From NCBI GenBank assembly GCA_963710755.1, contig CAVQBK010000003.1, positions 448,001 through 512,000 of the forward strand: a stretch of 64,000 nt of DNA, read 5' to 3'. Position numbers and translations under genes: made by a program. Below the pieces are notes generated by a model. That model saw only the letters and a list, made by a program, of their open reading frames with translations, searched no databases and was not told where the DNA came from. Positions 10,410-64,000 of this stretch are shown in pieces (positions within the stretch are counted from its first letter, which is position 1; each line of letters opens with the position of its first letter). Source of the stretch: an uncultured bacterium. GTDB taxonomy: Bacteria > Oederibacteriota > JAAXVQ01 > JAUVAV01.

Positions 10410-10440
10410 AATATCACCCTTCTTTTTTTCAAAAAAAAAT

Positions 10441-11802: not shown

Positions 11803-11811
11803 GAGGACGAG

Positions 11812-25362: not shown

Positions 25363-26349
25363 ATGATGAAAAAAATTGGATTATTAAGCTTGCTGGTTTT
25401 GCTCACGTTCAGTCTGGCCCAGGCCGACATTCCTAAGATTATTCATTTTCAAGGCCGGTTGACTGACCTGAGTGGTGTTCCCATAAGCGAGGGCGGTCAT
25501 GGCATTACGTTTAATCTTTGGGATGCCGAAACCGGGGGGAACCTCTTATGGACAGGGAATTATACGGTATCGACCAAAAGCGGCTACTACAGTATAGATC
25601 TTGGTGACAGCCCTAGTCCTTTTCCGGCGGCCATGACGTTTGATCAACCTTATTATCTGGATCTGCAAGTTGGAGGAGATCCTGATGTATTAAGCCCCCG
25701 TATCAAACTGGACAGTGCAGCCTATGCCATGAATGTTGCCGACAATGCCATTGTGACTACCAAGCTCAAAGACGGCGCCGTGACGGAGGCTAAACTGGCC
25801 GACAGCGCCGTGACCACTGCCAAACTGGACGACAGCGCCGTAACCAACGCTAAACTTGCCTATCATGCTATTACGGCAGACAAGATGGAGAACAGTGCGG
25901 TCATTACCGACAAAATTGCCGACAATGCCGTGACCACAACCAAGGTAGCCGACAGTGCGGTCACCAATGCCAAACTTGCCGCGGGCGCGGTGACGGGAAG
26001 TAAAATTACGGACGGGTCGGTAACCGCAACCAAAATTGCCAATGGTGCTGTGAATTCTCAAGCCAAAGCACCTTATGCGCCAGAAGTTTATTTTAATGGT
26101 ACCAGGACACCTAATATTAAAATACTTACCGGATCAAGCGGGACTAATGCTTCAGGATATGAAAAAGTCAATTTTCCAACAAACTTTTTTAGCACGCCGC
26201 CAAGAGTTTTTTTTACGGCCAGTAACAACACTTATTTAGTAGCGATGGATCTGCAAAGTGTTACCAAAGATTATTTTGAAGTTTGGTCAAGATATATGAA
26301 CAGTCAAGCATTTCCAACGAGTTATCAGTGGATGGCCATCGGATATTAG
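25363..26349 (+). CDS. Secreted fibre-like protein with 10-aa 'AVTxAKLADS' repeats and a WIAG-tail/gp53-like C-terminus
   Basis: Signal peptide; 'IHFQGRLTD..G.P'; about 10 repeats; ends 'YQWMAIGY'. Confidence 0.75.
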   Translation: MMKKIGLLSLLVLLTFSLAQADIPKIIHFQGRLTDLSGVPISEGGHGITFNLWDAETGGNLLWTGNYTVSTKSGYYSIDLGDSPSPFPAAMTFDQPYYLDLQVGGDPDVLSPRIKLDSAAYAMNVADNAIVTTKLKDGAVTEAKLADSAVTTAKLDDSAVTNAKLAYHAITADKMENSAVITDKIADNAVTTTKVADSAVTNAKLAAGAVTGSKITDGSVTATKIANGAVNSQAKAPYAPEVYFNGTRTPNIKILTGSSGTNASGYEKVNFPTNFFSTPPRVFFTASNNTYLVAMDLQSVTKDYFEVWSRYMNSQAFPTSYQWMAIGY

Positions 26350-26385
26350 AGCTATTTATAACCTGTTTTTGATGGGATCACCATA

Positions 26386-34294: not shown

Positions 34295-34344
34295 ATTTCT
34301 GCGCTTTGGCCAAGCCGTCAAGGCGGAAGAACAAGGAGCACCTC

Positions 34345-38091: not shown

Positions 38092-39947
38092 AGAGCAAAG
38101 CCAAGAGCCGCGCTAAAAAAATAAAGCGTCGTTCCGGCGTCAAACCGGCCGCCCCGGTCAAAAAAGTCCTGATCGGGCCCAAACTATCGTTATGCATGAT
38201 TGCCAGGGATGAAGCCCGCCATTTGGGCAGCTGCCTTAAGAGTGTCCGTCATTTGGTGGATGAGCTGATCGTGGTCGATACCGGTTCCCAGGACAATACC
38301 CCGGAAATTGCCCGCAGCCACGGTGCCAAGGTGGTCCATTTTCCTTGGCGCAATGATTTCAGTGCAGCCCGCAATGAATCCATCCGCCATGCCACTGGGG
38401 ATTATATCCTCTGGCTGGATGCGGATGATGTGCTCGACCAGGAAGATCAGCAACAGCTGCTGGCCCTAAGAGCACACCTGCCTCGGGAAAAAAATCAGGC
38501 TTATTTTTTCCTGGTCAAGAACGAGGACCGCAAACTGGGCACCACCTCTTTTTTCCAATTGCGGCTTTTTCCCAATCTTCCTGAAGCGCGTTTCGACTAT
38601 GCGGTCCATGAACAGATCAGCCATCGTCTGGAAGCTGCCGGGATCACCCTGCTGCGCGCGCCCGTGGCGGTGCGCCATTTGGGCAACGTAAGTCATGATG
38701 ACCTGGTGCGCAAATCGCGGCGCAATCTGGCCATAATTGAAGAGGAACTGAAAAAGGATCCCCGCCATCTGGTGATGCATTATCAGGCCGCCCGGACCCT
38801 GGCCAATCTGAATGAATTGGAAAAAGCCGTGAGCCATATGCAACAGGTGCTGGACGGGCTAAAAGCGGACAACCAACAAAGTGCTTTTTATTTTGAAGCC
38901 GGTCTGCTCATGGGACGCTACTATAATGAACTGGGCCTGTTCAGCTCCGCCGAGAGTGTAATTAAGGAAATACAGGAGTCGTTTAAAGAAGCGCCCTTGC
39001 TGCAATTGGAACTGGGTAAAAGTTATTATTTGCAGGAACGCTATGAAGAGGCTATTCAAGAACTGGCACCGCTGCTGGATCAGGACCTGCAGGCAGGCCA
39101 TGTGGCGGTTAATGAAGACTTGGTTCGCTATCAGCAGACCTATTATCTGGGCAAGGCCTATGAAACCATTGGGGATCCAGCGCAAGCCAAGGCCATGTAT
39201 CAACGATCGTTAAATTACCACCAACGCGATTTTCAGAGCTACCATGCTCTGGGTATGCTCAGTCTGAAAAATGGGGCATTTGAAGAGGCCCTGCAGTACC
39301 TGCTTCAGAGCAGCCAGGCAGCATCGCAAGACGACTGCGTGCTTCAGAGCAATCTGGGTCTGGTTTACAAAAAGCTGGGTCGTGGGCAAGAGGCTGAGAA
39401 AGCCTTGATGCGGGCTATTGAAATTAATCCCGACCGCCTGGAAGCTTTTGTCAACCTTGGTTATCTTTATCAGGAAAGCCATAACTGGGGCAAGGCCGCC
39501 AGCAGCTTTAAACGGGCACTGAAACTGGACCCAACCCTTTGGGATGTGCACCTCTGTCTGTGTGATGTTTATTTCAATTTGCGCCAGGTGGACATGTTGG
39601 TGGAAACCTGCAACGATCTGCTATCCGGCCTGGGCCTGCAGGTCAACCAAACCCTGGAAGGACTGGATGACCTGGCCGCAATCTTTGAAAGTGTGGGAGA
39701 CAGTTTTTCCCAAACCGGTAAAAATGAATTGGCGGTGATGGCCTATCAAACCGGGTTTGGTATTTTCCCGCTCACCGCTATTTTGCATAAACTTTTACCT
39801 CTGGCTGCCGCCTCCGGACGCAGAGCGCAGGTCATGACCACGCTCAAAGAATCCGTAGAACGTCATGGTGATGATCCGCAGGTAATGGCATCTGTACAGA
39901 GTGTGCTTGACCAATTTCAACAAAGCGCCCAGCACGCCTATCGCTGA
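38088..39947 (+). CDS. GT2 plus TPR glycosyltransferase
   Basis: 'LSLCMIARDE', 'VVDTGSQD', 'WRNDFSAARN', 'WLDADD', 'VHEQI'; multiple TPRs. Confidence 0.92.
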   Translation: MKSKAKSRAKKIKRRSGVKPAAPVKKVLIGPKLSLCMIARDEARHLGSCLKSVRHLVDELIVVDTGSQDNTPEIARSHGAKVVHFPWRNDFSAARNESIRHATGDYILWLDADDVLDQEDQQQLLALRAHLPREKNQAYFFLVKNEDRKLGTTSFFQLRLFPNLPEARFDYAVHEQISHRLEAAGITLLRAPVAVRHLGNVSHDDLVRKSRRNLAIIEEELKKDPRHLVMHYQAARTLANLNELEKAVSHMQQVLDGLKADNQQSAFYFEAGLLMGRYYNELGLFSSAESVIKEIQESFKEAPLLQLELGKSYYLQERYEEAIQELAPLLDQDLQAGHVAVNEDLVRYQQTYYLGKAYETIGDPAQAKAMYQRSLNYHQRDFQSYHALGMLSLKNGAFEEALQYLLQSSQAASQDDCVLQSNLGLVYKKLGRGQEAEKALMRAIEINPDRLEAFVNLGYLYQESHNWGKAASSFKRALKLDPTLWDVHLCLCDVYFNLRQVDMLVETCNDLLSGLGLQVNQTLEGLDDLAAIFESVGDSFSQTGKNELAVMAYQTGFGIFPLTAILHKLLPLAAASGRRAQVMTTLKESVERHGDDPQVMASVQSVLDQFQQSAQHAYR

Positions 39948-43598: not shown

Positions 43599-43759
43599 AG
43601 GACATGTAAGGGGGGGTACGATGATCTTCAACGCAGCCCACCACAGCCACAAGATTGGTCTTAATGACCGGCCGGCATAAGGAACAATCTTAAAAATCCC
43701 GGGTGTGCGTGAAGATAGCTGGCACGGATGTCAGCATCATTATCAAGGAGGATACTTCC

Positions 43760-44581
43760 ATGGGTTTTGCAATCAATCACAACGTACCGTCAGTAGCAGC
43801 TTTGGGAGCTTTGGACAAAACGACAACCGCTATCGGAAAATCGTTGTCCAAACTTTCCACGGGTTTGCGCATCGTGAAATCAGGCGATGATGCTTCCGGG
43901 TTGGTCATCAGTGAGCGCATGCGTGCGCAGATCAACGGGCTGCAAACCGCCAAACTGAACGCTTCCGAAGGCATCAACATGCTCTCCACCGCGGAAGGCG
44001 TGCTCAACGAAATCCACAGCATTCTGCAACGTATGAATACCCTGGCCGTGCGCGCCGACAATAGCGTCACCATTGCTCCCGGTTCAGCGGAATTACAGGC
44101 TTTGCAGGATGAAAACGATGCTTTGGTGCAGGAAATCGACCGTATTGCCGGATACGCGCAATTCAACGGCGTTAACCTGCTCGACGGGTCGCTGAGCGGA
44201 AACTTGCAGGTTGGTCCCGGTGCTGCCGGTGACAACGTCATTGCCACCTCTTTAGGTACGGTGGATTCCACCACCCTGGGCGTCGATACCCTGACCCTGG
44301 GCGATGGCGGAACAGCCATCACAGCTATCACCGGTGCCATTGAGACCTTGGGTACCAACCGCGGTGATCTGGGTGTGGCCATGAACCGTTTGGAGCACAC
44401 GATTGTCAACCTCGACACCATGATCGAGAACACGACCGCTTCGGAAAGCCGTATTCGTGATGTGGATATGGCTGAAGAAATCTCCAACTTCACACGACTC
44501 CAAATCCTGCAACAATCGGGTACCTCCATGCTTGCTCAGGCCAACTCGCAACCACAAGCAGTACTTAGCTTGTTGCGGTAA
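43760..44581 (+). CDS. fliC: Flagellin, copy 2 (near-identical to copy 1)
   Basis: Same motifs as 23440; AAGGAGG RBS. Confidence 0.97.
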   Translation: MGFAINHNVPSVAALGALDKTTTAIGKSLSKLSTGLRIVKSGDDASGLVISERMRAQINGLQTAKLNASEGINMLSTAEGVLNEIHSILQRMNTLAVRADNSVTIAPGSAELQALQDENDALVQEIDRIAGYAQFNGVNLLDGSLSGNLQVGPGAAGDNVIATSLGTVDSTTLGVDTLTLGDGGTAITAITGAIETLGTNRGDLGVAMNRLEHTIVNLDTMIENTTASESRIRDVDMAEEISNFTRLQILQQSGTSMLAQANSQPQAVLSLLR

Positions 44582-47764: not shown

Positions 47765-48821
47765 TTCAAGCCCAGGTGAGATGCCATTTAATGGCCTTGG
47801 GATCCTTGTCCTCCAGGTCCACCTTGGTGATTTTGAGCTTGATCAGCGCCAGGAACCCTGTTAGCCAGCCTTTCATAAACAGGCGTAGGAAAACAGGATA
47901 ATCAGGAAAATCCCTAAGCACCAAACTGCATCCCTTGGATCCAAAATTCTCAAGGGTCATGGCGCCGGTGCCATAATAGGATCTCCACAGTTTATCAAAT
48001 TTCTTCAGCACATATTCCTTGGTGGGAATGGATAAGAAGATTTTATAAAACATGGGTGTTTCCTTGGCCGTGGCCAGGCCTAAATCAAACAGGTTTTGCT
48101 CTTCACTGCCTTTAAACAGCAACTGCGCTGCTTCATATAAATGACTGCCTTCTTTGACCATGGGCAAATCCAGCCAGGAGACGGCCAAGCGTTTAAAATC
48201 CTCACGGCACTGGGGCATGAGCCTAGGTAAATAGTCCTTTTCAAAACTAAAGCCCCGGTCCTGTACCACCTTTTTGATCATCACAATGGACGCGCCTTTA
48301 ATTTTATTCATGATTTACTCCTTGAACAGGATTCAAGCCCAGGTGAGATGCCATTTAATGGCCTTGGGATCCTTGTCCTCCAGGTCCACCTTGGTGATTT
48401 TGAGCTTGATCAGCGCCAGGAACCCTGTTAGCCAGCCTTTCATAAACAGGCGTAGGAAAACAGGATAATCAGGAAAATCCCTAAGCACCAAACTGCATCC
48501 CTTGGATCCAAAATTCTCAAGGGTCATGGCGCCGGTGCCATAATAGGATCTCCACAGTTTATCAAATTTCTTCAGCACATATTCCTTGGTGGGAATGGAT
48601 AAGAAGATTTTATAAAACATGGGTGTTTCCTTGGCCGTGGCCAGGCCTAAATCAAACAGGTTTTGCTCTTCACTGCCTTTAAACAGCAACTGCGCTGCTT
48701 CATATAAATGACTGCCTTCTTTGACCATGGGCAAATCCAGCCAGGAGACGGCCAAGCGTTTAAAATCCTCACGGCACTGGGGCATGAGCCTAGGTAAATA
48801 GTCCTTTTCAAAACTAAAGCC
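47765..48821. repeat. Tandem duplication, 567-bp period, about 490 bp apparently identical
   Basis: 47765-48254 matches 48332-48821. Confidence 0.93.
47766..48311 (-). CDS. Hypothetical protein, DUF2378/HNOB-V4R-like, copy B
   Basis: 'IKG', 'AVSW', 'LWRSYYGTG', 'GWLTGFL'; AAGGAG RBS. Confidence 0.65.
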   Translation of the reverse strand: MNKIKGASIVMIKKVVQDRGFSFEKDYLPRLMPQCREDFKRLAVSWLDLPMVKEGSHLYEAAQLLFKGSEEQNLFDLGLATAKETPMFYKIFLSIPTKEYVLKKFDKLWRSYYGTGAMTLENFGSKGCSLVLRDFPDYPVFLRLFMKGWLTGFLALIKLKITKVDLEDKDPKAIKWHLTWA

Positions 48822-48878
48822 GCGGTCTTCCACCACTTTTCTGATCATGACGATAGAGGCACCTTTGACTTTATGCAT
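48333..48878 (-). CDS. Hypothetical protein, DUF2378/HNOB-V4R-like, copy A
   Basis: Identical to copy B after residue ~18; AAGGAG RBS. Confidence 0.65.
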   Translation of the reverse strand: MHKVKGASIVMIRKVVEDRGFSFEKDYLPRLMPQCREDFKRLAVSWLDLPMVKEGSHLYEAAQLLFKGSEEQNLFDLGLATAKETPMFYKIFLSIPTKEYVLKKFDKLWRSYYGTGAMTLENFGSKGCSLVLRDFPDYPVFLRLFMKGWLTGFLALIKLKITKVDLEDKDPKAIKWHLTWA

Positions 48879-48945
48879 GCTTTTCTCCTTTTTCCCTGGG
48901 AAGAGAGGCACCCAGGCCACATGATGTAATAAATTTACACGCTTA

Positions 48946-51668: not shown

Positions 51669-51745
51669 GTGCTTTTCTTAAAAATATGGCGGGCTTACCG
51701 AGACTAAGTCTATAATAACGGACAGTGGGGAAGGGGAGGCGTTGG

Positions 51746-52627
51746 GTGGATAAAAAAAAGCTCCTGAAAATCACGGAACGGATTACTGAATTTCCCACCC
51801 TGCCTACGGTCATTGCCAGGGTGATGCAGATCATGGATGACCCCAAGTCTTCGGCCGCGGACTTGACCAGTATCATTCAACTCGATCAAGCCATGATGTT
51901 CAGAATTCTCAAGATGGCCAACTCGGCTTATTACGGATTTCCCCGCGCCATTGCCACGGTGACTGAAAGCATTGTCCTGCTGGGCTTTACCACGGTGCGC
52001 AATATTATTCTTACCACCATGATCTACCAATTCGACCAGCTTTGGAACCGCCAACAAGACGTTAAGCCCGGGGCCATGGCTTTTGATCAAATGGAGGAAT
52101 GGCATCACGCCGTGGCCACGGCCATTGCCACTCGCGAACTTATCAGTCTGCAGCATCTGGGGGCTCTGGAAAATTTCGCCTATCTGGCCGGATTGATGCA
52201 TGATATCGGCAAGATCCTTTTCTTTCAGTATATGCCCGAAGATTACAAGCCCGTGCTTCAGGCCTTTCGTAAGAAAAAACAGGCCCTGTGGCAATTGGAA
52301 GAGGACATGCTGGGCGCGGATCACAGCCGGGTAGGCGCCTGGATTGTGGATAAGTGGAATTTGCCCGAAGATATTGTGGTGCCCATCAGCAACCACCACA
52401 CCCCGGAGAGATCCCAGGACCATCAAGAGCTGACCTGGGCATTGTACTGGGGCAATCATATTGCCTATGAGGCCTTGGGGGATCAGCCCCATGAGCCTGA
52501 ACCACAACTATGGCGGCAACAATTGGAAAGCATGATGGACGTGAGCCCGGAAAAGCAGGAAGCTCTGATTGTTAAAATCCGGGAAGAAGTGGATCACATT
52601 AAATCCTATATGGAACTGTCCCAATGA
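51746..52627 (+). CDS. HDOD domain protein
   Basis: 'FPTLP', 'ILKMANSAYYG', 'AGLMHDIGK', 'DHSRVGAW..KWNLP'. Confidence 0.93.
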   Translation: MDKKKLLKITERITEFPTLPTVIARVMQIMDDPKSSAADLTSIIQLDQAMMFRILKMANSAYYGFPRAIATVTESIVLLGFTTVRNIILTTMIYQFDQLWNRQQDVKPGAMAFDQMEEWHHAVATAIATRELISLQHLGALENFAYLAGLMHDIGKILFFQYMPEDYKPVLQAFRKKKQALWQLEEDMLGADHSRVGAWIVDKWNLPEDIVVPISNHHTPERSQDHQELTWALYWGNHIAYEALGDQPHEPEPQLWRQQLESMMDVSPEKQEALIVKIREEVDHIKSYMELSQ

Positions 52628-53991
52628 AGAAAAAAATCAATACCAGCCGCATAACAGGCGCAAAGAAGAAAACAGCCGTCTCACCGGTCTCCAAACGTCC
52701 GGCAGTTCCCACCCAAGCCCAGGAACCATCGGGTTTTAAAAACCATATTGATCTTTTGGAAAAGGTCAACCGCAGCCTGCGCGCCTATATTGGGGAGATG
52801 ACCAGTGTCTTCCGGTTTATCGAAACCGTGAGCGGCACTCACTCGTTGCATAAAATTCTTAAACTGCTGCTGGAAGTGGTTAAAGAATTATGTGCCTTCG
52901 ATGCCGGCGTGGTCTATCTGCATAAGCGGGGCAAGGGTGGCGGCAGTATTAAAACCCTTATGGCAGAAGACAATTCGGGTATCATCGAAAAGTTCCGCAA
53001 AACCATGGAGATCGATGAGAACATCTACGAGTGGGTGTTTCGCCAGGGCCAGGCGGTGATTATCCCCGAGAGTTTCCGTAAAAAAAATTCCCGCACCTTT
53101 AAACATTGGTCCTTTTTAATTGCGCCTTTAGTCTCCGGGCAGGAGCAGATCGGCCATCTCGAGCTGGCCTTTGACCGGCCTCAGGGCACCTTTACACAGC
53201 AGATGTTCAGTATTCTCAATGTGCTGCTCAAGCATGCCACGGTCATTCTCGTCAATGAGCGGGTTTATGAAAAAGAACGGCAGACCGCGCAAAAATATAT
53301 GGAATTGGACCTGTTGAAAAAGGACGTGGTCAACACCACCACCCATGAAATTAAAACGCCCTTGACCATCATTCAGGCGGCCAGCATCATCCTGGAAGGG
53401 GACGACAACATCACCTTGACAGAGCGCAAGGAATTGCTGGGCAAGATCATTGAACAATGCCGCCGTATTGATCTGATCGTCAACGAGCTTTTTGAAACCG
53501 CCCAGGTGGATGAACAGGTGCCGCTCATCAAGCCGCGGCCGATTAATTTAAACACTATTACCCGCGAGACCTTGAAGGATGTGCCGCACAATCCCAGCCT
53601 TGTTCATTTCGATCTGAACATTCCCGAGGCCCTGGTCACTTATGCCGACCCCAGCAGTATCTACAAAGTTTTTCGCAACTTAATTGAAAATGCCATCAAA
53701 TATTCTCCTCAAGGAGGACAGATCGTGATCCGTGCTCAGAGGCAGGACAGTAAGGTTCAGTGGATGATCAAGGATCAGGGCGTTGGTATCTCGGCCAAGG
53801 AACAGGAACAAATATTTGATAAATTTTTCCGCGGCGGTGAACTCTCCACCCGCCGGGTGGGCGGTATTGGCCTGGGGTTATATATTGTTAAAAAAAATGT
53901 GGAACTCAATCAGGGAACCGTGCGGGTGCAAAGCACACCTGGCGAAGGCACTACCTTTACGGTTACACTGCCGGGGGACAAAAGTAATTGA
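52624..53991 (+). CDS. Cytoplasmic GAF-like domain sensor histidine kinase
   Basis: 'THEIKTPLT', 'NLIENAIKYS', 'DQGVGI', 'GIGLGL'; no TM segment seen. Confidence 0.92.
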   Translation: MKKKINTSRITGAKKKTAVSPVSKRPAVPTQAQEPSGFKNHIDLLEKVNRSLRAYIGEMTSVFRFIETVSGTHSLHKILKLLLEVVKELCAFDAGVVYLHKRGKGGGSIKTLMAEDNSGIIEKFRKTMEIDENIYEWVFRQGQAVIIPESFRKKNSRTFKHWSFLIAPLVSGQEQIGHLELAFDRPQGTFTQQMFSILNVLLKHATVILVNERVYEKERQTAQKYMELDLLKKDVVNTTTHEIKTPLTIIQAASIILEGDDNITLTERKELLGKIIEQCRRIDLIVNELFETAQVDEQVPLIKPRPINLNTITRETLKDVPHNPSLVHFDLNIPEALVTYADPSSIYKVFRNLIENAIKYSPQGGQIVIRAQRQDSKVQWMIKDQGVGISAKEQEQIFDKFFRGGELSTRRVGGIGLGLYIVKKNVELNQGTVRVQSTPGEGTTFTVTLPGDKSN

Positions 53992-54150: not shown

Positions 54151-54596
54151 TCCACGCGCCCATGGTGCCGGCCACCTCTGCTCACTTGAATCTATATTGC
54201 TTCCCAACCGTAACACGCCTCTTTTTTAAACATTTTAATTCGATTCCCGCAAAAAAATTATCTTGTTTCCAACAGTGATGAAGAATAGGTTCCCCTAAAG
54301 TGGCTGGCACCATAGTTTACTTCGCACGGTGCAGGCCGACCTGTACCCTGCACCCGCTTATTGAGCCCGGTGCATCCAGGGTCAATTAAATTTTCCACAG
54401 CCCCTCCCCAGGCATGGTGTTCATTCCATACTCTGGACCCAAAGTCTATGGAATAAAATCCCTAGGTCCAAGTTAAAGGTGCTCTTGCCGATTATAGCAG
54501 GGTGGCTATCTTAATCCTCCATCATATTAATCTTTATTTATAAGCGTTTTATTGAAATACACCTAGAGGCCACCTGTAATGGCATAAAAATAAAAT

Positions 54597-54612
54597 TGGC
54601 ACATCTGTTGCT
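54597..54612 (+). promoter_or_regulatory. sigma54 promoter of the flgB operon
   Basis: Perfect TGGCAC-N5-TTGCT. Confidence 0.8.
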
Positions 54613-54655
54613 TATAATAAATTCGCCAATCTATTCCAGAAAGAAGGTGGCGTTT

Positions 54656-55114
54656 ATGCACGAATCCTTTGAATCCAACTCCAGCTTGGAACCAGTGGTG
54701 AATTCCCTGGGACGAATTCAAAGCCAGATTCAGGCGTTGATGGAAATGGAAAAGTCCTGGCGCGATGAATTGGATATGGAACAGCTCCAAGAGTTGATCA
54801 AGCGCAAACGCCAGCTGATTGACAACATCCAGCACCTTATCCGTGATCAACAGAATCTGGAAATGGAATTGGTCGAAAGCAGCGGTGAGGCGCTGCCATC
54901 TCAATATAAGGATTATCGGGACAAACAGGTGGCTGCTATTCATCAAATGCTGGAAAACATCATCAACTTGCACCAGAGCCATGAACAGAAACTCCAACAG
55001 CGCGCCAGCACCCTCAAACTCAATCTGGAAGAAGTGCAGCAGGCCATTGCCCTGGTCAAGGCCTACCATGTACAAAAACCAAATCAGGCCCGTCATATTG
55101 ACCTGGCGGGATAG
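54656..55114 (+). CDS. Helical hypothetical protein, FlgN/FliT-like
   Basis: Coiled coil 'LQELIKRKRQLIDNI', C-term 'KAY..Q..ARHID'; AAGGTGG RBS. Confidence 0.6.
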   Translation: MHESFESNSSLEPVVNSLGRIQSQIQALMEMEKSWRDELDMEQLQELIKRKRQLIDNIQHLIRDQQNLEMELVESSGEALPSQYKDYRDKQVAAIHQMLENIINLHQSHEQKLQQRASTLKLNLEEVQQAIALVKAYHVQKPNQARHIDLAG

Positions 55115-55203: not shown

Positions 55204-55614
55204 ATGAACATTAATTTTAACGGCTTTGACCTCAATCAAGTCATGCAGGTCCTGGATGTATTACAGGTTAAACATAAGACCCTGGCCGACAACATTGCCA
55301 ATACCAATACGCCCGGGTATATCCGTCAGGACGTGAACTTCCGGCAAGAATTGGAAAAAGTGTTGGAGCAGCCGTCTCCAGCCGCGTCGTTTCAAGACTC
55401 CGGCTATCCGGGGCAAGGACTGGATGCTCTAATGGCCCAGGATATTGAGATCCAGAGTGACACCAGCCAACCGGTCAAAACTGACGGCAATAATGTCAAT
55501 TTAGAGCAGGAAATGGTGGACCTAAGCCAGACCAGTCAGGCTTACGAAATCATGACCAAGCTGGCGTCCAACCGATTTAAACTGGCCAGTTATATTGTGA
55601 GAGGAGGACATTAA
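55204..55614 (+). CDS. flgB: Rod protein FlgB
   Basis: 'LADNIANTNTPGY..QDVNF', 'DGNNVNLEQEM'. Confidence 0.95.
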   Translation: MNINFNGFDLNQVMQVLDVLQVKHKTLADNIANTNTPGYIRQDVNFRQELEKVLEQPSPAASFQDSGYPGQGLDALMAQDIEIQSDTSQPVKTDGNNVNLEQEMVDLSQTSQAYEIMTKLASNRFKLASYIVRGGH

Positions 55615-55616
55615 GC

Positions 55617-56021
55617 ATGGAAATTTTTCCGGGCATGCTGATCAGCGCCAGTGGGCTGACTGCAGAGCGCACGCGCATGAATGTGATCGCCAATAACATT
55701 GCCAATGTCAACACCACCAAGACCGCCGACGGTTCGGTCTTCAAAAGGCAATTGGTGGAATTAATGTCCGTGGACGGGGACAGCAGCCCCACCGGCGTGC
55801 CGGGCGTGCAGGTGCAGGGCATTGTGGAAGATACGGCACCCTTTAAACTGAGCTATGAACCCAATCATCCTGATGCCAACGCGCAAGGATATGTCACCCG
55901 TCCCAACGTGGATATCATGATGGAAATGGTGGATCTTATCTCCGCCTCGCGCAGCTATGAAGCCAATGTCACGGTGCTGGAAAATGCCAAAGACATGGTG
56001 AAAAACGCCTTGGCGATCTGA
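55617..56021 (+). CDS. flgC: Rod protein FlgC
   Basis: 'ISASGLTAERTRMNVIANNIAN', 'YEPNHPDA..GYV', 'ASRSYEAN'. Confidence 0.97.
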   Translation: MEIFPGMLISASGLTAERTRMNVIANNIANVNTTKTADGSVFKRQLVELMSVDGDSSPTGVPGVQVQGIVEDTAPFKLSYEPNHPDANAQGYVTRPNVDIMMEMVDLISASRSYEANVTVLENAKDMVKNALAI

Positions 56022-56037
56022 AGCTTAAGGAGGTCAC

Positions 56038-56349
56038 ATGATATCCATTGAAGGCATTCCCGGTATTAAACCCATCGTCATGGATAACCTGCTGGCTCCG
56101 GAACGCACGACCGCCAAGCCGGCCGAGGGCAGTTCGTTTCAAAATCTGCTGATGGAAGGCATTAAAACCCTCAACACCCAGGATCAGGAGAGTGCAGCCG
56201 TGACCCAGGCTTTTTTAAAAGGCGAAGGCCCGTCGGTACATACGGTGATGCTGGCCACGGAGCAAGCCAAACTGAGTATGGAATTTGCCGTGCAGATTCG
56301 CAACAAGGTCATGGAAGCCTATCAAGAAGTAATGCGCATGCAGGTCTAA
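56038..56349 (+). CDS. fliE: FliE
   Basis: 'VQIRNKVMEAYQEVMRMQV'. Confidence 0.96.
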   Translation: MISIEGIPGIKPIVMDNLLAPERTTAKPAEGSSFQNLLMEGIKTLNTQDQESAAVTQAFLKGEGPSVHTVMLATEQAKLSMEFAVQIRNKVMEAYQEVMRMQV

Positions 56350-56392
56350 GCCCGCGGCAGCAAGGGTCACAACATTTTCCGGATGGTGATGC

Positions 56393-57904
56393 ATGAACCG
56401 TTTTGAACAACTGTTGAAAAAAATCACAGCTTGGTGGAGCCAAACCACCTTAAACCAAAAAATCCTGATCGTGCTTTCCGGTCTGGTGGGCCTGGGCATG
56501 ACCGCAGGCTTGATTTACTGGTCTACCCGGCCTGACTTCACCGTGCTCTACAGTAAGCTGAGCCCCCAGGATGCCAATGCCATCGTGGAAATCCTTAAGG
56601 ACAACCACACCCCCTATCGCTTGGGCGCAGGCGGGGGCACTGTCGAAGTGCCGAGCAAAGCTATTTATGACACCCGCTTGGAATTGGCCGGCAAAGGCCT
56701 GCCCAAAGGCGAAGGGGTGGGTTATGAAATTTTTGACAAAATGGCTTTTGGCGTGACCGATGAAGTTCAGCAAATTAACTTTTTGCGGGCTCTGCAAAAT
56801 GAACTGGAACGCACCATTGACTCCATTGATGCCATTGAAAAATCCCGGGTACATTTGGTGATCCCCAAGGAAGAAGGCTGGTTTCAGGAAAAATTCAAGC
56901 CTACGGCATCGGTGATGGTCCGCCTGGCCTCGGGCGGCACCCTGCTGCCCCGGCAGATCAGCAGTATTCGGCACCTCCTGGCCAGTGCGGTCAGCGGCCT
57001 GTCCCCGGAAAATGTAACCATTGTGGATACCTCGGGCAATGTACTCAGCGCAGCCGGTGATGATGATGACAACAGCGTGAGCGACCGCCAGATCGAGTAT
57101 AAGCAAAAGGTGGAAAAAACCCTGAAAGAAAAAGCGGAGAGCCTGCTGTTCAAGATTGTAGGCCCCAATAAAGCCGCAGTACAGGTGTATGCAGAAATGG
57201 ACTTTGACCAGACCCAACGGGAACAGGAATATTTTACGCCCGTGGTGGGCAAGAGCGGCCTAGTGCGCAGTGAAAAGCGCAACTCCGTGACCCCTGTCAA
57301 AAGCAATAACCAGAGCGGCGGCATGGCCGGCACAGCCAGCAATCTGCAGGGTTATCCACCGGCCGGTGTGGTGACCCGCCAGGCCAGCAGCAAGAGCGAA
57401 CAACAGGTGAGCTATGAAATGAACCGCACCGTGGAGCGCACCACCACCGCCGGCGGGCAGGTTAAAAAACTGTCGGTCGGCATTTTTATCGACGGCAACA
57501 TGAAAGAGGAGCAATTGAGCGCCATTCGCGGGGTGGTGGAAAAAGCCCTGGGTATTGACCCGCAGCGGGGCGATCAGATCGAAGTCAAGGCCTTGCCCTT
57601 CACCAGTCAGAATACGGAAGAAGAGAAGCAACTGCTGGAAAAATCCCAGCGCCAGAAATTCATCATGACCATCATCACCAAGTGGGTACCCCGGGCCTTG
57701 CTGGTGCTGGTAGGCATCGGTTTTCTGATTATGAGCATGGGTAATATGAAGAAAATGGCGGCAGCTGCAGCCCAGTCTTCCAGCGACGAGGAAGACGACG
57801 GCCCTGACTATGGGGGCCGGAGGTTTGATCCGGATAAATTCATAGGGGCGATCAAGAACAATCCCGATGAAACGGCCAAGGTACTGAAGAACTGGCTTTC
57901 TTAA
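56393..57904 (+). CDS. fliF: MS-ring protein FliF
   Basis: 'GYEIFD', 'RALQNELERTI', 'RVHLVIP', 'RGDQIEV..LPF', 'KVLKNWL'. Confidence 0.96.
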   Translation: MNRFEQLLKKITAWWSQTTLNQKILIVLSGLVGLGMTAGLIYWSTRPDFTVLYSKLSPQDANAIVEILKDNHTPYRLGAGGGTVEVPSKAIYDTRLELAGKGLPKGEGVGYEIFDKMAFGVTDEVQQINFLRALQNELERTIDSIDAIEKSRVHLVIPKEEGWFQEKFKPTASVMVRLASGGTLLPRQISSIRHLLASAVSGLSPENVTIVDTSGNVLSAAGDDDDNSVSDRQIEYKQKVEKTLKEKAESLLFKIVGPNKAAVQVYAEMDFDQTQREQEYFTPVVGKSGLVRSEKRNSVTPVKSNNQSGGMAGTASNLQGYPPAGVVTRQASSKSEQQVSYEMNRTVERTTTAGGQVKKLSVGIFIDGNMKEEQLSAIRGVVEKALGIDPQRGDQIEVKALPFTSQNTEEEKQLLEKSQRQKFIMTIITKWVPRALLVLVGIGFLIMSMGNMKKMAAAAAQSSSDEEDDGPDYGGRRFDPDKFIGAIKNNPDETAKVLKNWLS

Positions 57905-57975: not shown

Positions 57976-59001
57976 ATGGCGTTAAAGGACGATCAAAAAA
58001 AAGAACGCCTCCACAAGGTGGCGGTACTGCTCACGCTTATTGGCAAAGAGGCTGCCCAGGAGATTATCAAACAGTTTCCGCCCGATGAGATTGAACGTAT
58101 CAGCCGTGAAATGATGAAATGTGAATCTGTGGACAGCCAGGAAGGGGAGCAAGTGCTGCGGGAGTTTTTTACGGCCATTGGCAGCAGCCATAGTCTGGCC
58201 AAGGGTGGGGCTCATTACGTCGAGGACGTGCTGGCACCGGCCCTGGATCCGGAGCGGGCCCAACGTCTGCTACGTAAACTGCGCAATCCCAACCAGGTCA
58301 TGCCCTTTGATGATTTTCGGGATGTGGCCCCCAGTATTATCATCGATGTGCTCAAAGAGGAACATCCCCAGACCATGGCCCTGGTGATTTCCAATTTACC
58401 CAGTGATGTCTCGGCGCAGATCATCCACCAACTGCCGGAAAAATTGCAGCAGGAGGTGGCCAGGCGCATTGCCACCCTCGATCAAAGCGCACCCGATATG
58501 ACCACCATCCACGACATTGAGGATCGCCTGCGGGAAAAGATCAAGCAGGAAGAAGCCAAACCACAATTACTCAAAATTGGAGGTGTGCAAACAGCGGCAG
58601 ATATTCTCAATCAACTGGACAAACAGGCAGCGGGCAGCATTTTGGAAACGATTGAAGGTGCTAATGAAGAGTTGGCCAATGCCATCAAAATGCGCATGGT
58701 GCGTATGGAGGATATGATCAAACTCAACGATATGGAAGTTCAGCGCGTGCTCAAGGAAGTGGAGACCCAGGATCTGGCCGTGGCTTGCAACCGCCTCGAT
58801 GCCGGGGTTCAGGACATGATCTTCCGTAACATGTCCTCCCGGGGCGCGGAAATGCTCAAGGATGACATTGAGGTTATGGAAAATGTCAAACCTGAAGCCA
58901 TTCGCGAGGCACGGCGTAAGATTGCCGAGATTATGCGCCGTCTCGATGATGAAGGCAGCATCATGCTCAACAAGCAAAACCTGGAGGAAGACATTGTCTA
59001 A
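57976..59001 (+). CDS. fliG: Motor switch protein FliG
   Basis: 'KVAVLL', 'EHPQTMAL', 'GGVQTAADILN', 'NMSSRGAEML.DD'. Confidence 0.95.
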   Translation: MALKDDQKKERLHKVAVLLTLIGKEAAQEIIKQFPPDEIERISREMMKCESVDSQEGEQVLREFFTAIGSSHSLAKGGAHYVEDVLAPALDPERAQRLLRKLRNPNQVMPFDDFRDVAPSIIIDVLKEEHPQTMALVISNLPSDVSAQIIHQLPEKLQQEVARRIATLDQSAPDMTTIHDIEDRLREKIKQEEAKPQLLKIGGVQTAADILNQLDKQAAGSILETIEGANEELANAIKMRMVRMEDMIKLNDMEVQRVLKEVETQDLAVACNRLDAGVQDMIFRNMSSRGAEMLKDDIEVMENVKPEAIREARRKIAEIMRRLDDEGSIMLNKQNLEEDIV

Positions 59002-60970
59002 GGTGATCAAATCTCCCCACTTGAGCGAACAGGCATTTGCCATCCCTGTGCACGGCGCAACGGCCGCTGACACCCACCCGGATGGTACGGCGGACAACAA
59101 GTCCAGCGAGCCTGATCAGGTTGCCACTGCCGAGGATGGGGTTGGCCGCGAAACGGACATGGAAACAATTAAAGTTTCGGCCTTTAATCATGGCTTTGAG
59201 GAAGGCCGACGATCGGCCGAGCAACGGCTGGCACGGGAGAAAGCAGAGCAGGAGCAATTGTTGACGAAAATCGGTCAGGAAGTGGAAAGCTTCTACACCA
59301 AGATGGAAAAGCGTATGCTTGACGTCATTCTGGCCATAGTGAAAAAAATCATCGGCCAGAGTGATCACCTTAATCCCGACCTGATCAAGGAAAGTCTTAA
59401 AAAAGTCTTGGGTAAGCAGGACGATCTGGGGGGGGTGCTGACCCTGAGGCTCAATCCCCGTGATTACAAAAAAATTGCACCTGACCGCCAGGTGATGCCC
59501 ACCAATCTCCGTTTACTTCCCGATCAATCCATCCAGCCTGGAGGTACGCTGTTGGAGACCCCTTATGGGTTTATTGACAGCCGCTTGGAATCGCAGCTGG
59601 AAGAATTGGAACGGATGCTGCGTGATCAATTTGCCGACGGCCGCGTGCCGCTCCAGGCCAAGGCCATGGTGGAAGAAGCCCAGGAGATACGTTCCGAGGG
59701 CCGGGTGCTCAACATTGTGGGCACCGTGCTTGAATCGCGCGGACCCAACGTGACCATTGGCGAGCAGTGTGACATTATCGGGGCCAACCGGCAGCAGCGG
59801 GTCAGGGCTGAGGTTATTGGGTTTAAAGACAACCGGGTGCTCATGATGCCCTTGGGCGAGAAGCACGGCATTGGTCCGGGCAGCCGGATTATTGCCCATG
59901 GCCAGCCCTTCACCATTCACGCCAGCGAGCAATTGCTGGGCCGCATTCTCGACGGCCTGGGCCAGCCTATTGACGACCAAGGACCCATCTTCGGCGGTGA
60001 AGCCGTAAGCATTCACAATACGCCCAATAATCCTATGCAGCGCCGGCCCATCGAGAAACCGCTCTACACGGGCGTGAAAGCCATTGACGGTCTGCTCACT
60101 TGCGGCAAAGGCGGACGCATGGGGATTTTCGCAGGCAGCGGTGTAGGTAAGAGCACGCTGCTGGGCATGATGGCCCGCAACACCTCGGCGGACATCAATG
60201 TGATTGCCCTGATCGGAGAACGAGGCCGGGAAGTACGCGAATTTATTGAAAATGATCTTGGCCAGGAAGGTCTGCAACGTTCGGTGGTCATTGCCGTGAC
60301 TTCCGACGAATCGCCCATTCTGCGCATTCATGGCGCCAAACTGGCGGCCAGTGTGGCCGAGTATTTTGCGCGCCAGGGCAAGGATGTGCTCTTCATGATG
60401 GATTCGGTAACGCGCTTTGCCATGGCTCAGCGTGAGATCGGCCTGGCTGTGGGCGAGCCGCCCACCACCAAAGGGTACACGCCCTCCACCTTTGCCGAGT
60501 TGCCCAAGCTGCTGGAACGTTCCGGAAACTTCAGCCAACAGGGCAGCATCACCGGCTTTTATACGGTACTGGTGGAAGGAGACGATATGGATGAACCGGT
60601 CTCGGACCATGTGCGCAGCATCCTCGACGGGCACATTGTGCTTTCGCGCAGCCTGTTCAGCCAAAATCACTTTCCTGCCATCGATGTTCTGCCCAGCATC
60701 AGCCGTTTGGCCAAGCAGGTTTGCTCACCTGAACAAGGCCGGTGGGGCGGGATGATCCGCGATCATTTGGCGGCTTTTGCGGAAGCGCAGGATCTCATTA
60801 ACATCGGCGCTTATGTGCAGGGCAGCAACCCTAAAATTGACAAGGCCATGGCGGTGATCGACGACATCCGTGCTTTTCTGAAGCAACGCGTCAATGAGAA
60901 GATTGCCGTGGACCAGGTCTGGCCGCTGCTGGAGCGTATCATCAAAAAGATTGAAGGACAGGGCGTATGA
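58994..60970 (+). CDS. fliI: In-frame FliH-FliI fusion (export ATPase with N-terminal FliH)
   Basis: TTG start after GGAGGA ('MSKVIKS'); FliH 'GFEEG..LRLNPRD..DQSIQPGG.LLET.YGFIDSRLESQL', then with no stop FliI 'EGRV..AEVIGF..GSGVGKS..DSVTRFA..GEPP'. Confidence 0.9.
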   Translation: MSKVIKSPHLSEQAFAIPVHGATAADTHPDGTADNKSSEPDQVATAEDGVGRETDMETIKVSAFNHGFEEGRRSAEQRLAREKAEQEQLLTKIGQEVESFYTKMEKRMLDVILAIVKKIIGQSDHLNPDLIKESLKKVLGKQDDLGGVLTLRLNPRDYKKIAPDRQVMPTNLRLLPDQSIQPGGTLLETPYGFIDSRLESQLEELERMLRDQFADGRVPLQAKAMVEEAQEIRSEGRVLNIVGTVLESRGPNVTIGEQCDIIGANRQQRVRAEVIGFKDNRVLMMPLGEKHGIGPGSRIIAHGQPFTIHASEQLLGRILDGLGQPIDDQGPIFGGEAVSIHNTPNNPMQRRPIEKPLYTGVKAIDGLLTCGKGGRMGIFAGSGVGKSTLLGMMARNTSADINVIALIGERGREVREFIENDLGQEGLQRSVVIAVTSDESPILRIHGAKLAASVAEYFARQGKDVLFMMDSVTRFAMAQREIGLAVGEPPTTKGYTPSTFAELPKLLERSGNFSQQGSITGFYTVLVEGDDMDEPVSDHVRSILDGHIVLSRSLFSQNHFPAIDVLPSISRLAKQVCSPEQGRWGGMIRDHLAAFAEAQDLINIGAYVQGSNPKIDKAMAVIDDIRAFLKQRVNEKIAVDQVWPLLERIIKKIEGQGV

Positions 60971-61422
60971 AAAAATTTAAATTTAACCTGGCCGCGCTGC
61001 TGAAAATCAGAAAGCGCCATGAAGAACGCATCATTCAGGAGTTCAGCGATCAGCAACGCCGGGTGCTGGAACAAGAAGCCCTCCAGCAACAACTGGTGGT
61101 GGCACGCAGCAAGAAACATCAGGAATATAAGCTGCTTAAAACCGGGGCCATGGACATGGCCAAGGACAAGGCCTATGACCAGTACTTGATCCGTTTGCAA
61201 CAGGACATTCAGAAAACCGAAACCCATTTGGGCCTGCTCCGGCAGGAATTGGAAGCCTTGCGCCAGCGCCTGGTCCGAGCCCGCAAAGAGGTGGCGGTGC
61301 TGGAAAAAATAAAAGAGCATCGCTGGGAAGAACACCGGCAAGCCTTGAGTAAGGAAGAGCAGCGTCTGCTGGACGAGGTGGCCATTAACCACGCCCAGGA
61401 TCAGCAGTTCTGGAATGATTAA
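60967..61422 (+). CDS. fliJ: Export protein FliJ
   Basis: 'MKKFKFNL..LLKIR', 'LEKIKE', 'EQRLLDE'. Confidence 0.9.
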   Translation: MKKFKFNLAALLKIRKRHEERIIQEFSDQQRRVLEQEALQQQLVVARSKKHQEYKLLKTGAMDMAKDKAYDQYLIRLQQDIQKTETHLGLLRQELEALRQRLVRARKEVAVLEKIKEHRWEEHRQALSKEEQRLLDEVAINHAQDQQFWND

Positions 61423-61532
61423 CATATGTCTTAAAGGCTGCAATGAGGGTGGTAAAAAACTAACGCCTTCAAACAGGCATTAACATTCATGTCATAACCC
61501 GGAGGATGCACAGCACCTCCCAGGAGGATCTT

Positions 61533-62849
61533 ATGGGTGAATCCATGCAAGTGCAAGCAGCAGTGGTAGAAGCCGCCGTCAATACGGCTCAGGGCGCCGC
61601 CGTCAAAGACAACACCAACCTGGAGCAGCCGGACTTGGGGTTGGTAAAGGAATTTTTAGCCTTTTTAAACCACGATCTGGCCAGTGAGAATGCTGCCCCC
61701 TTGGGAGATCAGGAGAGCGAAACCGAGGTCGAGACCGAGACCGACCAGCCATCAGAAGGCACAGAGCAGGCCTTGCTCCAATTGCTTCAGAACCATCCGG
61801 CTATGGCCGCGGCCGTGCTTATGCCTATGATAGCTCCGCCGCCACAGGCCGAGGTACCAGGTGATAATCCTGTGCAGGGCACAAAAATGAATCTGGCGGA
61901 TTTGGCAGCCGCGATGGAAGCTCTTCAGGACCAGCCTCAGGGTCAGGCTGCGGTCATGGAGGTGTCTCCTGTGGCTGTGCAGAGTGAAAATCCACAGGTT
62001 TTGAAACGCGATCAAACCGGGGTCCACGGTATGCTCAATGATTTTCCCCAGGGATGGGAAAGCCTGCTGGACGATAACGCCGTAGCGGAAACATCGGGCC
62101 CATTGCCTGAACCAGGGGCTCTTGAGCAGGTCAAAGCGGGTGCCATGACCATGACGGTTATGCCCAGCGGAGCTGAAGCCGAAAGCCCGGGGTCCGGCCT
62201 GACTTTGGAAAATTTGGACAGCGAGCAAGAAACCTTCACCTTTTTAGCGGGCAAGGAGGGAGGGGGCACCAAGCATGCGGCCGTTGAGAAAACGTCCATG
62301 GAGCCCACTTTTACGGAAAACGCGATGTTCAGCATGCCCGGCCGGAGTCTGGGACTGGATGCGACTCTGTCACCGTCCGGTGCGGGCACATTGCAGCTGC
62401 TCAAAGCCATGAACGAGGTACAGCAGCAGAGTGTGATCAAGTCCTTTAGCCAGGAAGTAGTCAAGGGTGCCAAAGGCAAGGAAGAAAAACTTCATATTGA
62501 ACTAAATCCACCTGAATTGGGACGGGTGCAGGTGACCGTCCATCGCAGCGGTGATCAGATTCATGCCAAGGTATTCATGGCGGATAAACATCTGGGCGAG
62601 TTTTTTCAGGACAATTTGGACCAGATTAAAAAAAACCTGGAGTCCGCAGGCGTGAAGGTGGGGACGTTTTCCCTGGAAGTGGGGCAGCAACAACAGCAGG
62701 CCGGCCAGGGACCGGTCAACAAGCAGGATCAGGAGGAACAGGGGTGGTCCGCTCAGCCTAAAGGGCTGAGTGTGTCTGAGACCACGCCGACAGGCAGCGG
62801 CGACCGGGCCGGACGCTGGAAAACCTCAAAAGTGGATATGTTGATATAA
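61533..62849 (+). CDS. fliK: Hook-length control protein FliK
   Basis: Low-complexity N-terminus; 'IELNPPELGRVQV'; alternative start at 61506. Confidence 0.9.
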   Translation: MGESMQVQAAVVEAAVNTAQGAAVKDNTNLEQPDLGLVKEFLAFLNHDLASENAAPLGDQESETEVETETDQPSEGTEQALLQLLQNHPAMAAAVLMPMIAPPPQAEVPGDNPVQGTKMNLADLAAAMEALQDQPQGQAAVMEVSPVAVQSENPQVLKRDQTGVHGMLNDFPQGWESLLDDNAVAETSGPLPEPGALEQVKAGAMTMTVMPSGAEAESPGSGLTLENLDSEQETFTFLAGKEGGGTKHAAVEKTSMEPTFTENAMFSMPGRSLGLDATLSPSGAGTLQLLKAMNEVQQQSVIKSFSQEVVKGAKGKEEKLHIELNPPELGRVQVTVHRSGDQIHAKVFMADKHLGEFFQDNLDQIKKNLESAGVKVGTFSLEVGQQQQQAGQGPVNKQDQEEQGWSAQPKGLSVSETTPTGSGDRAGRWKTSKVDMLI

Positions 62850-62930
62850 CTCTGGCAGGGCGTGCCCCTCTGGGGTTGAGTGGAGCCGGGCCACCATGTC
62901 CGGGTTTAACACAGACAGGAGGAAGAACAT

Positions 62931-63299
62931 ATGAATGTGGATTCAGTAGGATCAATGGGTAAAACCGATTTTTTAAACTTGTTGGCCACGCAGTTAAAGT
63001 ATCAAGATCCCATGAACCCCGTGGACAATACGGAGTTCATCTCCCAACTGGCGCAGTTCACGGCTCTGGAGACTTCGGAGAACACGAGAGATGAAATTGC
63101 CGGACTGGCCAGGTTGGAATCAAACAGTTTTGGCACTGTGCTGCTGGGCCGGTCTGTGAGCGGCATTGACACCCGGGACAGCAACTGCTATCTGCCCTTT
63201 TCAGGAGCTGTGACGGCGGTGGATGTTTCCGGTAATCAGGTAAAAGTGACCGTCAATCACCAAGAGTATCTGCTTAGCGATGTTCAGGCTATTGAATAA
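62931..63299 (+). CDS. flgD: Hook cap FlgD (short form)
   Basis: 'MGKTDFLNLLATQLKYQDPMNPVDNTEFISQLAQFT.LE'. Confidence 0.95.
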   Translation: MNVDSVGSMGKTDFLNLLATQLKYQDPMNPVDNTEFISQLAQFTALETSENTRDEIAGLARLESNSFGTVLLGRSVSGIDTRDSNCYLPFSGAVTAVDVSGNQVKVTVNHQEYLLSDVQAIE

Positions 63300-63345
63300 A
63301 CGGACTTAAATGATCCGCAAGCACAGCTAAAAGAGGAGGACTATT

Positions 63346-64000
63346 ATGTTACGTTCATTATTTACGGGAATTTCAGGGCTGACCAATCATCAAACCAGGA
63401 TGGATGTGATCGGTAACAACATTGCCAATGTCAACACCACAGGCTTCAAAGCCGGTCGGGTTAATTTCCAGGACATGATGTCTCAGACCTTGCAGGGCGC
63501 CAGCCCGGGCACCGGCGGCCGGGGCGGCACCAACCCCAAAGAAATCGGGTTGGGCGTCTCCATGGCCACCATTACCAATATCCACAGCCAGGGCGCGCTG
63601 CAGTCCACGGGGGTCATGACCGATCTGGGCATCCAAGGCGACGGGTTTTTTATTCTCAGTGACGGCAACCGTAACCGCTATACCCGTGACGGCAGTTTCG
63701 GACTCGATGAAGACGGTAATTTAGTGGAGCCGTCCAACGGCTTGCTGGTGCAAGGGTGGAGCGCCACCGCCGGGGTGATCGATACCACCCAGCCGGTGGG
63801 TAACATTAACATTCCCATTGCCGCGGAGATGGCGGCCCAGGCCACCAGCCAGGCTGAGATTATCGGCAACCTTGATTCCACCCAAGCCGCAGGCTACACT
63901 TACAACAACACCTTTCTGGTCTACGATTCCCTGGGTGATAACCACAATGTCACCGTAACCTACACCAAGACGGGCGTCAATACCTGGAGCTGGCAAGCCT
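63346..64000 (+). CDS. flgE: Hook protein FlgE (runs off the window)
   Basis: Manual translation 'MLRSLFTGISGLTNHQTRMDVIGNNIANVNTTGFK..GGTNPKEIGLG'; GAGGAGG RBS. Confidence 0.95.
   Translation, partial: MLRSLFTGISGLTNHQTRMDVIGNNIANVNTTGFKAGRVNFQDMMSQTLQGASPGTGGRGGTNPKEIGLGVSMATITNIHSQGALQSTGVMTDLGIQGDGFFILSDGNRNRYTRDGSFGLDEDGNLVEPSNGLLVQGWSATAGVIDTTQPVGNINIPIAAEMAAQATSQAEIIGNLDSTQAAGYTYNNTFLVYDSLGDNHNVTVTYTKTGVNTWSWQA

Follow-up and report, generated by a model that had tools for sequence, protein, structure and literature searches.

In the 64,000-nucleotide stretch of contig CAVQBK010000003.1 analysed here (DNA of an uncultured bacterium; the whole 64-kb stretch is called the window below), the flagellar export ATPase FliI and its stalk protein FliH are encoded as a single polypeptide. 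The forward-strand frame at 58994–60970 lies between fliG and fliJ, its translation runs through 658 codons without a stop, and we conclude that it is a genuine FliH–FliI fusion gene. An earlier note on this DNA had described this one frame as spanning both proteins, and the motifs that it quoted are present in the protein. Fourteen fused proteins, the window protein included, carry no stop or frameshift at the junction and share no conserved start codon position there, so that, as the note had argued, the fusion forces FliH and FliI to 1:1 and the usual 2:1 stalk-to-ATPase ratio is ruled out from this gene alone. At the level of the gene, the fusion is the old, single-origin and normal export ATPase gene of a clade labelled FCPU426/Firestonebacteria. 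For the machine that it builds, we tentatively favour, at a probability of roughly 0.4, a homohexameric ring whose covalent stalk chains pair in trans into three stalks, so that one gene would yield an alternating, three-fold ring. The elements of the fusion gene are as follows (aa, amino acid residues of the fusion protein).

58994..60970, + strand: fliH–fliI fusion gene, 658 aa, 72.1 kDa (translation and domain matches)
58983..58996, + strand: GGAGG ribosome-binding site (58983–58987) and TTG start (58994), overlapping the fliG end
58994..59014, + strand: conserved N-terminal SKVIKS-type motif (K6 in at least 90% of the 14 fusions)
59015..59158, + strand: variable segment, aa 8–55, predicted disordered (mean identity 0.27 over aa 1–60)
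59159..59365, + strand: long FliH helix, aa 56–124, with invariant G67/G71/A75 and a hydrophobic heptad face (model and alignment)
59366..59635, + strand: FliH C-terminal globular domain and terminal helix, aa 125–214 (helix 198–214, invariant QLEE; fold match)
59636..59689, + strand: fusion junction, with a Gly/Pro-rich turn (aa 215–219), short helix 219–228 and strand entry E-[IV]-R (alignment and model)
59690..59908, + strand: FliI N-terminal beta-barrel, aa 233–305 (Pfam and model; R233 in 14/14)
60071..60703, + strand: ATPase domain with Walker A K386/S387, catalytic E409, Walker B D470 and arginine finger R571 (Pfam and alignment)
60725..60931, + strand: FliI C-terminal helical domain (Pfam)

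The N-terminal half of the protein is FliH by both family profile and fold. Pfam places the FliH domain at 82–204 (E 4e-19; 69.2 bits against a PF02108 cut-off of 24.1), and the predicted structure matches the Salmonella FliH chain 5b0o_E (Z 11.6, root-mean-square deviation (rmsd) 2.4, 133 residues aligned), with aa 81–213 lying on FliH 100–234. The long coiled-coil helix carries the expected AxxxGxxxG/A pattern, its G67, G71 and A75 being present in 14/14 fusions, and large hydrophobic residues at 86, 90, 93, 97, 100, 101, 104, 111, 113, 115 and 119 are kept in 12–14 of the 14. This helix contains the equivalent of residues 101–140, the segment through which Salmonella FliH dimerises (PMC9114704, in part). 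The SKVIKS-type motif is predicted from its position to be the C-ring (FliN)/FlhA-binding tip of FliH, the binding role of the tip being taken from the same source (PMC9114704, in part); neither fliN nor flhA is among the genes identified in the window. Canonical FliH is a separate polypeptide, which the FliH of the fusion is not.

The remainder is FliI. Pfam finds the beta-barrel (ATP-synt_ab_N, 239–301), the ATPase domain (ATP-synt_ab, 360–570) and the C-terminal domain (T3SS_ATPase_C, 578–646) that together define the FliI/SctN family. The NCBIfam model TIGR01026 scores 596.5 bits against a cut-off of 379.5, and the best model, TIGR03497 (FliI_clade2), scores 612 bits, slightly under its cut-off of 629.8. 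K386, S387, E409 and D470 are present in 14/14 fusions, and R571, within S-[IV]-S-R-L, in all 12 full-length rows. The FliI part belongs to the flagellum rather than to the injectisome (SctN), because the gene context fliF–fliG–X–fliJ–fliK–flgD–flgE decides the assignment.

At the junction, FliH and FliI overlap in register with no linker added. Profile alignment to Salmonella FliI places R233 on R26 and G236 on G29, which puts FliI residue 1 at position 208 and the docking helix 2–21 at 209–228. The FliH part aligns to 5b0o_E up to residue 234 of 235, and the model suggests that FliH is complete to about residue 214 of the fusion. FliI positions ~1–7 are taken by the last helix of FliH; a turn follows, and then a half-length docking helix, the short helix 219–228 corresponding to the second half of the extreme N-terminal helix of FliI. 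The fusion therefore retains no more than about the latter half of the helix 2–21 that is free in canonical FliI. In Salmonella, one FliH C-domain binds FliI helix 2–21 and the second attaches to a basic patch that includes R26, and deletion of FliI 2–7 suppresses hexamer formation (PMC9114704 and PMC8041783, both in part). The earlier note had seen a short linker between a full FliH and a complete FliI; its view of FliH agrees with the predicted end near 214, but the supposed linker is not extra sequence and about the first seven positions of FliI have been replaced.

A structure model of aa 55–310 was built from 136 sequences (mean predicted local distance difference test (pLDDT) 87.9, predicted template-modelling score (pTM) 0.61, junction pLDDT 62–74). 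It contains a helix at 56–125, the FliH globular domain, a helix at 198–214, the turn, the helix at 219–228 and the barrel from 232, and a full-length fold from 14 sequences (mean pLDDT 52) agrees with it in secondary structure at the junction. Large hydrophobic residues at 198, 202, 205, 209, 226 and 232 occur in 14/14 fusions. The stretch that runs from QLEE to the R of R-x-E-G is 28 residues long in 12 of the 14 and 27 and 26 in the other two, while mean identity among the fusions is 0.29 in the junction, compared with 0.55 for the FliH domain and 0.65 for the barrel. That the length of the junction is kept despite such low identity points to a geometric constraint.

The FliH plus ATP-synt_ab architecture recurs in relatives. 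A GTDB scan for two narrow patterns, which is not a census, gave 415 matches and eight loci (L001–L008), with two fused loci found among them: L001 (fliF–fliG–fusion–fliJ–fliK) and L002 (fliF–fliG–fusion), with the junction DNA open in both. L007 and L008 gave a tblastn match across the junction, yet their fliH and fliI are separate and overlapping; L003–L006 were FliH-only matches and were excluded from the locus comparison. When residues 55–250 were compared with proteins of 361–1152 aa, two of 1393 candidates were recovered, the window protein itself and P0003 (87% identical overall), and an exhaustive search of 50% representatives found P0004 (49% identical, aligned without gaps across the junction). 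Furthermore, a FliH-plus-junction profile matched 17 of 7999 scored long candidates, of which 14, including the window protein, are FliH–ATPase fusions. These 14 clusters have 24 members in all, drawn from NCBI, JGI, Logan and ENA, and are 48–86% identical to one another over aa 1–480. Twelve are full length (633–658 aa); P0004 ends inside the ATPase domain at a contig end, and P0157 also ends inside this domain. Where the source records give them a name, it is FliI/YscN ATPase, flagellum-specific ATP synthase or hypothetical protein. The other three matches are P0164 (FliI only), a receiver domain–FliH protein and a long FliH. The second of these (P0165, 360 aa, on a 45.6 kb contig) is an unrelated second FliH fusion, represented by a single record.

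The fused FliH parts have a single origin. We compared the 14 with 85 free FliH, taken as the best 60 from a set of 148 and the best 25 from one of 93, in a tree made by a quick method and rooted at its midpoint, and found that they form one branch (Shimodaira–Hasegawa-like approximate likelihood ratio test 99) with none of the 85 free FliH inside it. The closest free FliH are at most 38% identical to the fusion (E 4e-14; best 150 of 4285 matches, among which only two, both fusions, exceed 340 aa), and those of a second set at most 33% (best E 2e-18; 93 matches among 8000 scored), against 37–51% identity to the window protein for non-sister fusions. No independent fusion in another lineage appeared among the 17 profile matches or the best 150 of the 4285 matches, both searches having been aimed at the FliH of this clade. 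The FliH domain is under purifying selection between the window and L001, which differ across the globular domain (aa 125–204) by 34 synonymous and 7 non-synonymous codon changes. Two of the fusions are labelled by lineage, P0004 as Ca. Firestonebacteria and P0163 as candidate division FCPU426; the rest are unlabelled, and the lineage of the window is deduced from these two labels. FCPU426 corresponds to Goldbacteria, and the Firestonebacteria examined in the same source were without flagellar genes (PMC7031533, in part), so the label of P0004 may be loose. A phylum-wide flagellar survey names FCPU426 once, with ~35% of core flagellar genes lost (PMC13277936). The fusion may also provide a common marker for this uncultured clade.

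We propose that each ATPase subunit bears its own stalk chain. As the predicted anatomy suggests, the last helix of FliH and the turn would replace the first FliI residues, and the remaining half of the docking helix would be held in cis by the chain's own FliH domain. Two fused chains would pair through their long FliH helices, a coiled coil that needs a partner, and three such dimers would form the FliI6 ring around FliJ, with three FliH2 stalks reaching the C-ring instead of six. The soluble carrier would then be (FliH–FliI)2 rather than FliH2–FliI. We consider the chances about even that the fused FliH parts pair in trans and give up to three stalks per hexamer, not six. Trans-dimerisation is favoured because the dimerisation helix is conserved and because no free FliH of the clade was found, including in the window, L001 and L002, where a profile of 148 free FliH detected no FliH beyond the fusion in any of the six frames. 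The earlier note had left three options: fewer stalks, trans-dimerisation or a second source of free FliH. Trans-dimerisation with fewer stalks combines the first two; a divergent fliH elsewhere in the genome is less likely but may exist. Precedent comes from the ATP synthase, which functions with its stator cap fused to an ATPase subunit and then has up to three stalks (PMC12229609, in part).

Several observations weigh against this arrangement. The search for a second stalk gene spanned 64 kb of a 1,467,107-base contig and two short loci. The single-chain model, at the pTM and junction pLDDT given above, leaves the orientation of the domains unfixed and the oligomers to be inferred, and a complex prediction with two copies of aa 55–310, which scored 0.28 against a mark of 0.42, counts neither for nor against pairing. 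In Salmonella, as described in part, both FliH C-domains contact one FliI and do so in different shapes, and here the second chain would have to reach a neighbouring ring position through a tether of 18 residues. Borrelia has ~23 FliH2 spokes per hexamer, i.e. far more FliH is used in some motors (PMC6248999, in part). In the delta–alpha fusions of F-type ATP synthases, the nearest analogue, the b2 stalk comes from separate genes, which by analogy favours a free partner. Finally, one FliI protein, P0164 (437 aa, 86% identical to the fused P0155), begins at the junction. The fuller reading, with three stalks and an alternating three-fold ring, falls somewhat short of even odds; if it holds, it would be the flagellar counterpart of the A3B3 and alpha3beta3 rings with their three stators, and binding and release of FliH would no longer regulate FliI.

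An unlikely alternative is that the fused FliH supplies one chain per stalk and that a free partner, such as a divergent FliH or a V-ATPase-G-like or b-like helix, restores six two-chain stalks. This would preserve the known FliH12–FliI6 geometry (PMC8041783, in part), and the two FliH chains in 5B0O already differ in shape and so could have specialised; the separate b2 stalk of the delta–alpha fusions offers a precedent, and most of the genome lies beyond the DNA searched. However, the fusion is the sole FliH-like frame in the window, L001 and L002, the fliG–fliJ interval has no room for an extra gene, and none of the 85 free FliH falls in the fused clade, although a short helical partner would escape such searches.

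We regard as less likely again a 12-mer in which the fused chains likewise pair in trans, with a single ATPase from each pair built into the ring, leaving six stalks and six spare heads, possibly as substrate carriers. Six spokes and the contact pattern of 5B0O would thereby be kept without a second gene, Salmonella FliH2–FliI carriers are also found at the flagellar base (PMC8041783, in part), and the conserved dimerisation features fit this arrangement equally well. Six extra heads of 48 kDa around the crown of the ring would, on the other hand, be crowded and wasteful, and the tightly conserved tether length fits a second docking site that is fixed more readily than a head left dangling. 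A fused FliH that does not dimerise, giving six single-chain spokes, is the simplest reading of a 1:1 gene, and, judging by the fold match to 5b0o_E, the long helix can be partly covered by the terminal helix of its own chain; yet the GxxxG/A repeat and heptad face (aa 64–119), kept in 12–14 of the 14 fusions, would be needless in a free single helix, and we find these monomeric spokes improbable.

It is more improbable still that the single frame yields separate proteins, whether by cleavage in the turn, by frameshifting or by translation starting internally around codon 208 or 225. Both of these codons read ATG in the window and GTG in L001, and L002 has GTG at the equivalent of 225; FliI residue 1 falls in register at codon 208, and L001 has GGAGG 11 bases upstream of this codon. 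However, ten of the 14 fusions have no Met in the junction, position 208 is A, E, T or S in 7/14 and position 225 is S, R, A or G in 6/14, residues with which these codons cannot act as starts. Ahead of these two codons the window offers a Shine–Dalgarno match of 3 bases at best, compared with 3–6 (median 5) at 11 flanking starts, in agreement with the earlier note, which had seen no convincing internal ribosome-binding site. Over aa 205–232, the window and L001 differ by 4 synonymous changes where 9.3 are expected (nominal p 0.016), but a dip of this size is reached by 62% of whole-gene null scans and is not significant after scanning. The TGA in the –1 frame at codon 210 is present in both the window and L001 but missing from L002, no slippery heptamer precedes it, and the junction RNA does not fold above shuffles (z –0.66 to –1.15). 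P0164 starts at the position of codon 225 but lies on a 2314-base contig, which may have cut the gene short; the alternative is a secondary split. Extra free FliI from an internal start would further reduce the share of FliH; a minor internal start is possible in some members, yet it would not supply extra FliH. Programmed frameshifting or slippage to give free FliH or a G-like helix was rejected as well, as the A7 runs of the window (aa 117 and 159) are missing from L001 and L002, and no signal is common to the three DNA records. An assembly or sequencing artefact, or a recent stop loss in one strain, has a negligible chance: every record is metagenome-derived, but the frame and the junction length are common to 14 clusters (24 sequences, four collections) down to 48% identity, and the junction is open in the DNA of two other genomes (L001 and L002).

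We found no report of a natural FliH–FliI or SctL–SctN fusion in the literature searched, in which coverage of subscription journals is thin. The words "fusion" and "fused" are absent from the text and two supplements of PMC13277936, and the fusions discussed in bioRxiv 10.1101/2021.01.01.425057 are, in the part of it considered here, b–delta only. The FliH12–FliI6–FliJ model has a 2:1 ratio, FliH holding the FliI N-terminal helix against early ring formation, and a soluble FliH2–FliI carrier (PMC8041783, in part). A 1:1 covalent version kept over ~50% sequence divergence implies that at least one of these three premises is dispensable or is met otherwise. The fusion thereby makes testable how many stalks an export ATPase needs, how ring assembly is regulated when FliH cannot leave, and whether a homohexamer can be given three-fold asymmetry by its stalks, as is often assumed in accounts of how F/V-type ATPases originated. 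Its junction also offers a ready-made template for structural work with a tethered FliH–FliI construct, the full complex being so far known as a model.

The fusion gene sits in a flagellar operon with the following neighbours.

55204..57904, + strand: flgB–flgC–fliE–fliF, the upstream part of the same operon (open reading frames (ORFs) and profiles)
57976..59001, + strand: fliG, intact, 341 aa (domain and family profiles)
60967..61422, + strand: fliJ, intact, 151 aa, exceeding the TIGR02473 cut-off (domain and family profiles)
61506..63999, + strand: fliK–flgD–flgE, with flgE truncated by the window end (ORFs and profiles)

The TTG start of the fusion has GGAGG six bases upstream and overlaps the fliG stop, and the ribosome-binding site, TTG and fliG overlap are arranged in the same way in L001; at the other end, the TGA stop of the fusion overlaps the fliJ ATG. 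Two flagellins, fliD, fliS, flgM, flgN, fliW and the P/L-ring genes are found elsewhere in the window, and from this gene set the flagellar system is apparently intact. Ahead of flgB, a weak FlgN-like ORF at 54596–55114 (E 4e-4, below cut-off) is conserved in L001 (887–1345), and a clear flgN is present at 19655–20152. An HDOD protein and a GAF–HisKA–HATPase kinase (51725–53991) lie between fliS and flgB, and the C-terminal part of the kinase is also found upstream of the operon in L001. Just upstream of fliD, two tandem genes on the minus strand (47766–48311 and 48333–48920; ~181 aa) are 97% identical over 559 bases and have no Pfam match at E 0.01, indicating a recent duplication of a protein without an assigned family. 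The flagellin genes (23389–24264 and 43703–44581) are ~19 kb apart, with 89% DNA identity and 258 of 274 residues identical, and large glycosyltransferase, methyltransferase and TPR genes between them (34306–39947) are possibly a flagellin glycosylation island. The region 26001–28000, with a 538-aa ORF at 26386–28002, has a G+C content of 0.38 against 0.47–0.57 elsewhere and was possibly acquired. At 7393–12747 there are two gene pairs, in each of which a putative outer-membrane protein (one with OmpA, one with a weak DUF5723) follows a Thr-rich protein whose C-terminal domain is FlgD_ig; these may resemble PorV-like sorting pairs. A 45-base repeat lies in 9700–9805 and a 147-base tandem repeat in 10633–11210.

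The fusion shares with the Salmonella FliH2–FliI and FliH12–FliI6–FliJ system (5B0O) the gene order fliG-H-I-J, the FliH fold, the FliI domains and catalytic residues, and an intact FliJ. It differs in being one polypeptide at 1:1 instead of 2:1, in that FliH cannot leave FliI, and in that FliI positions 2–7 are occupied by the last helix of FliH. Among V-type enzymes, the eukaryotic V-ATPase has three stalks on a three-fold ring. Like FliH, the E subunit of the V/A-type ATPases has been described as a b+delta-like fusion (bioRxiv 10.1101/2021.01.01.425057, in part), but E and G form a heterodimer that is separate from the A3B3 ring. In type III systems the number of spokes varies, from six in the Salmonella injectisome to ~23 in Borrelia (PMC6248999, in part). 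FliH or SctL is a separate protein both in Borrelia and in the injectisome SctL–SctN, with six or more spokes, whereas for the fusion gene on its own no more than three two-chain spokes per hexamer are predicted.

By analogy, the nearest counterpart would be the delta–alpha fusion of the F-type ATP synthase (PMC12229609, in part). In Foldseek, the junction model is best matched by 9JC1 (E 3e-7, 174 columns that cover both domains, but a template-modelling score of 0.34 and rmsd 6.8), an engineered Bacillus PS3 enzyme in which the delta C-terminal domain is fused to alpha and which has up to three stalks; natural delta–alpha fusions are noted in Acidaminococcus fermentans (PMC12229609, in part). 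In the ESM Atlas, the top three matches are clusters of OSCP + ATP-synt_ab fusions (scores 0.82–0.84), which are leads only, and a search with aa 55–310 gave no usable match. The window protein is not itself an F-type delta–alpha fusion: it has no OSCP match, scores 147 bits with the atpA model against 596 for FliI, and lies in a flagellar and not an atp operon. What the two have in common is a globular stator cap, the FliH C-domain being a delta homologue, joined to the N-terminus of an ATPase subunit, with an altered number of stalks, and this strengthens the link to F-type stator evolution that the earlier note had drawn. In the delta–alpha enzyme the coiled-coil b2 remains separate and the ring is alpha3beta3, whereas the FliH–FliI protein fuses the whole stalk chain to a homohexameric export ATPase. 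The same joint has thus been made in both branches of the family, and here the coiled coil is fused as well.

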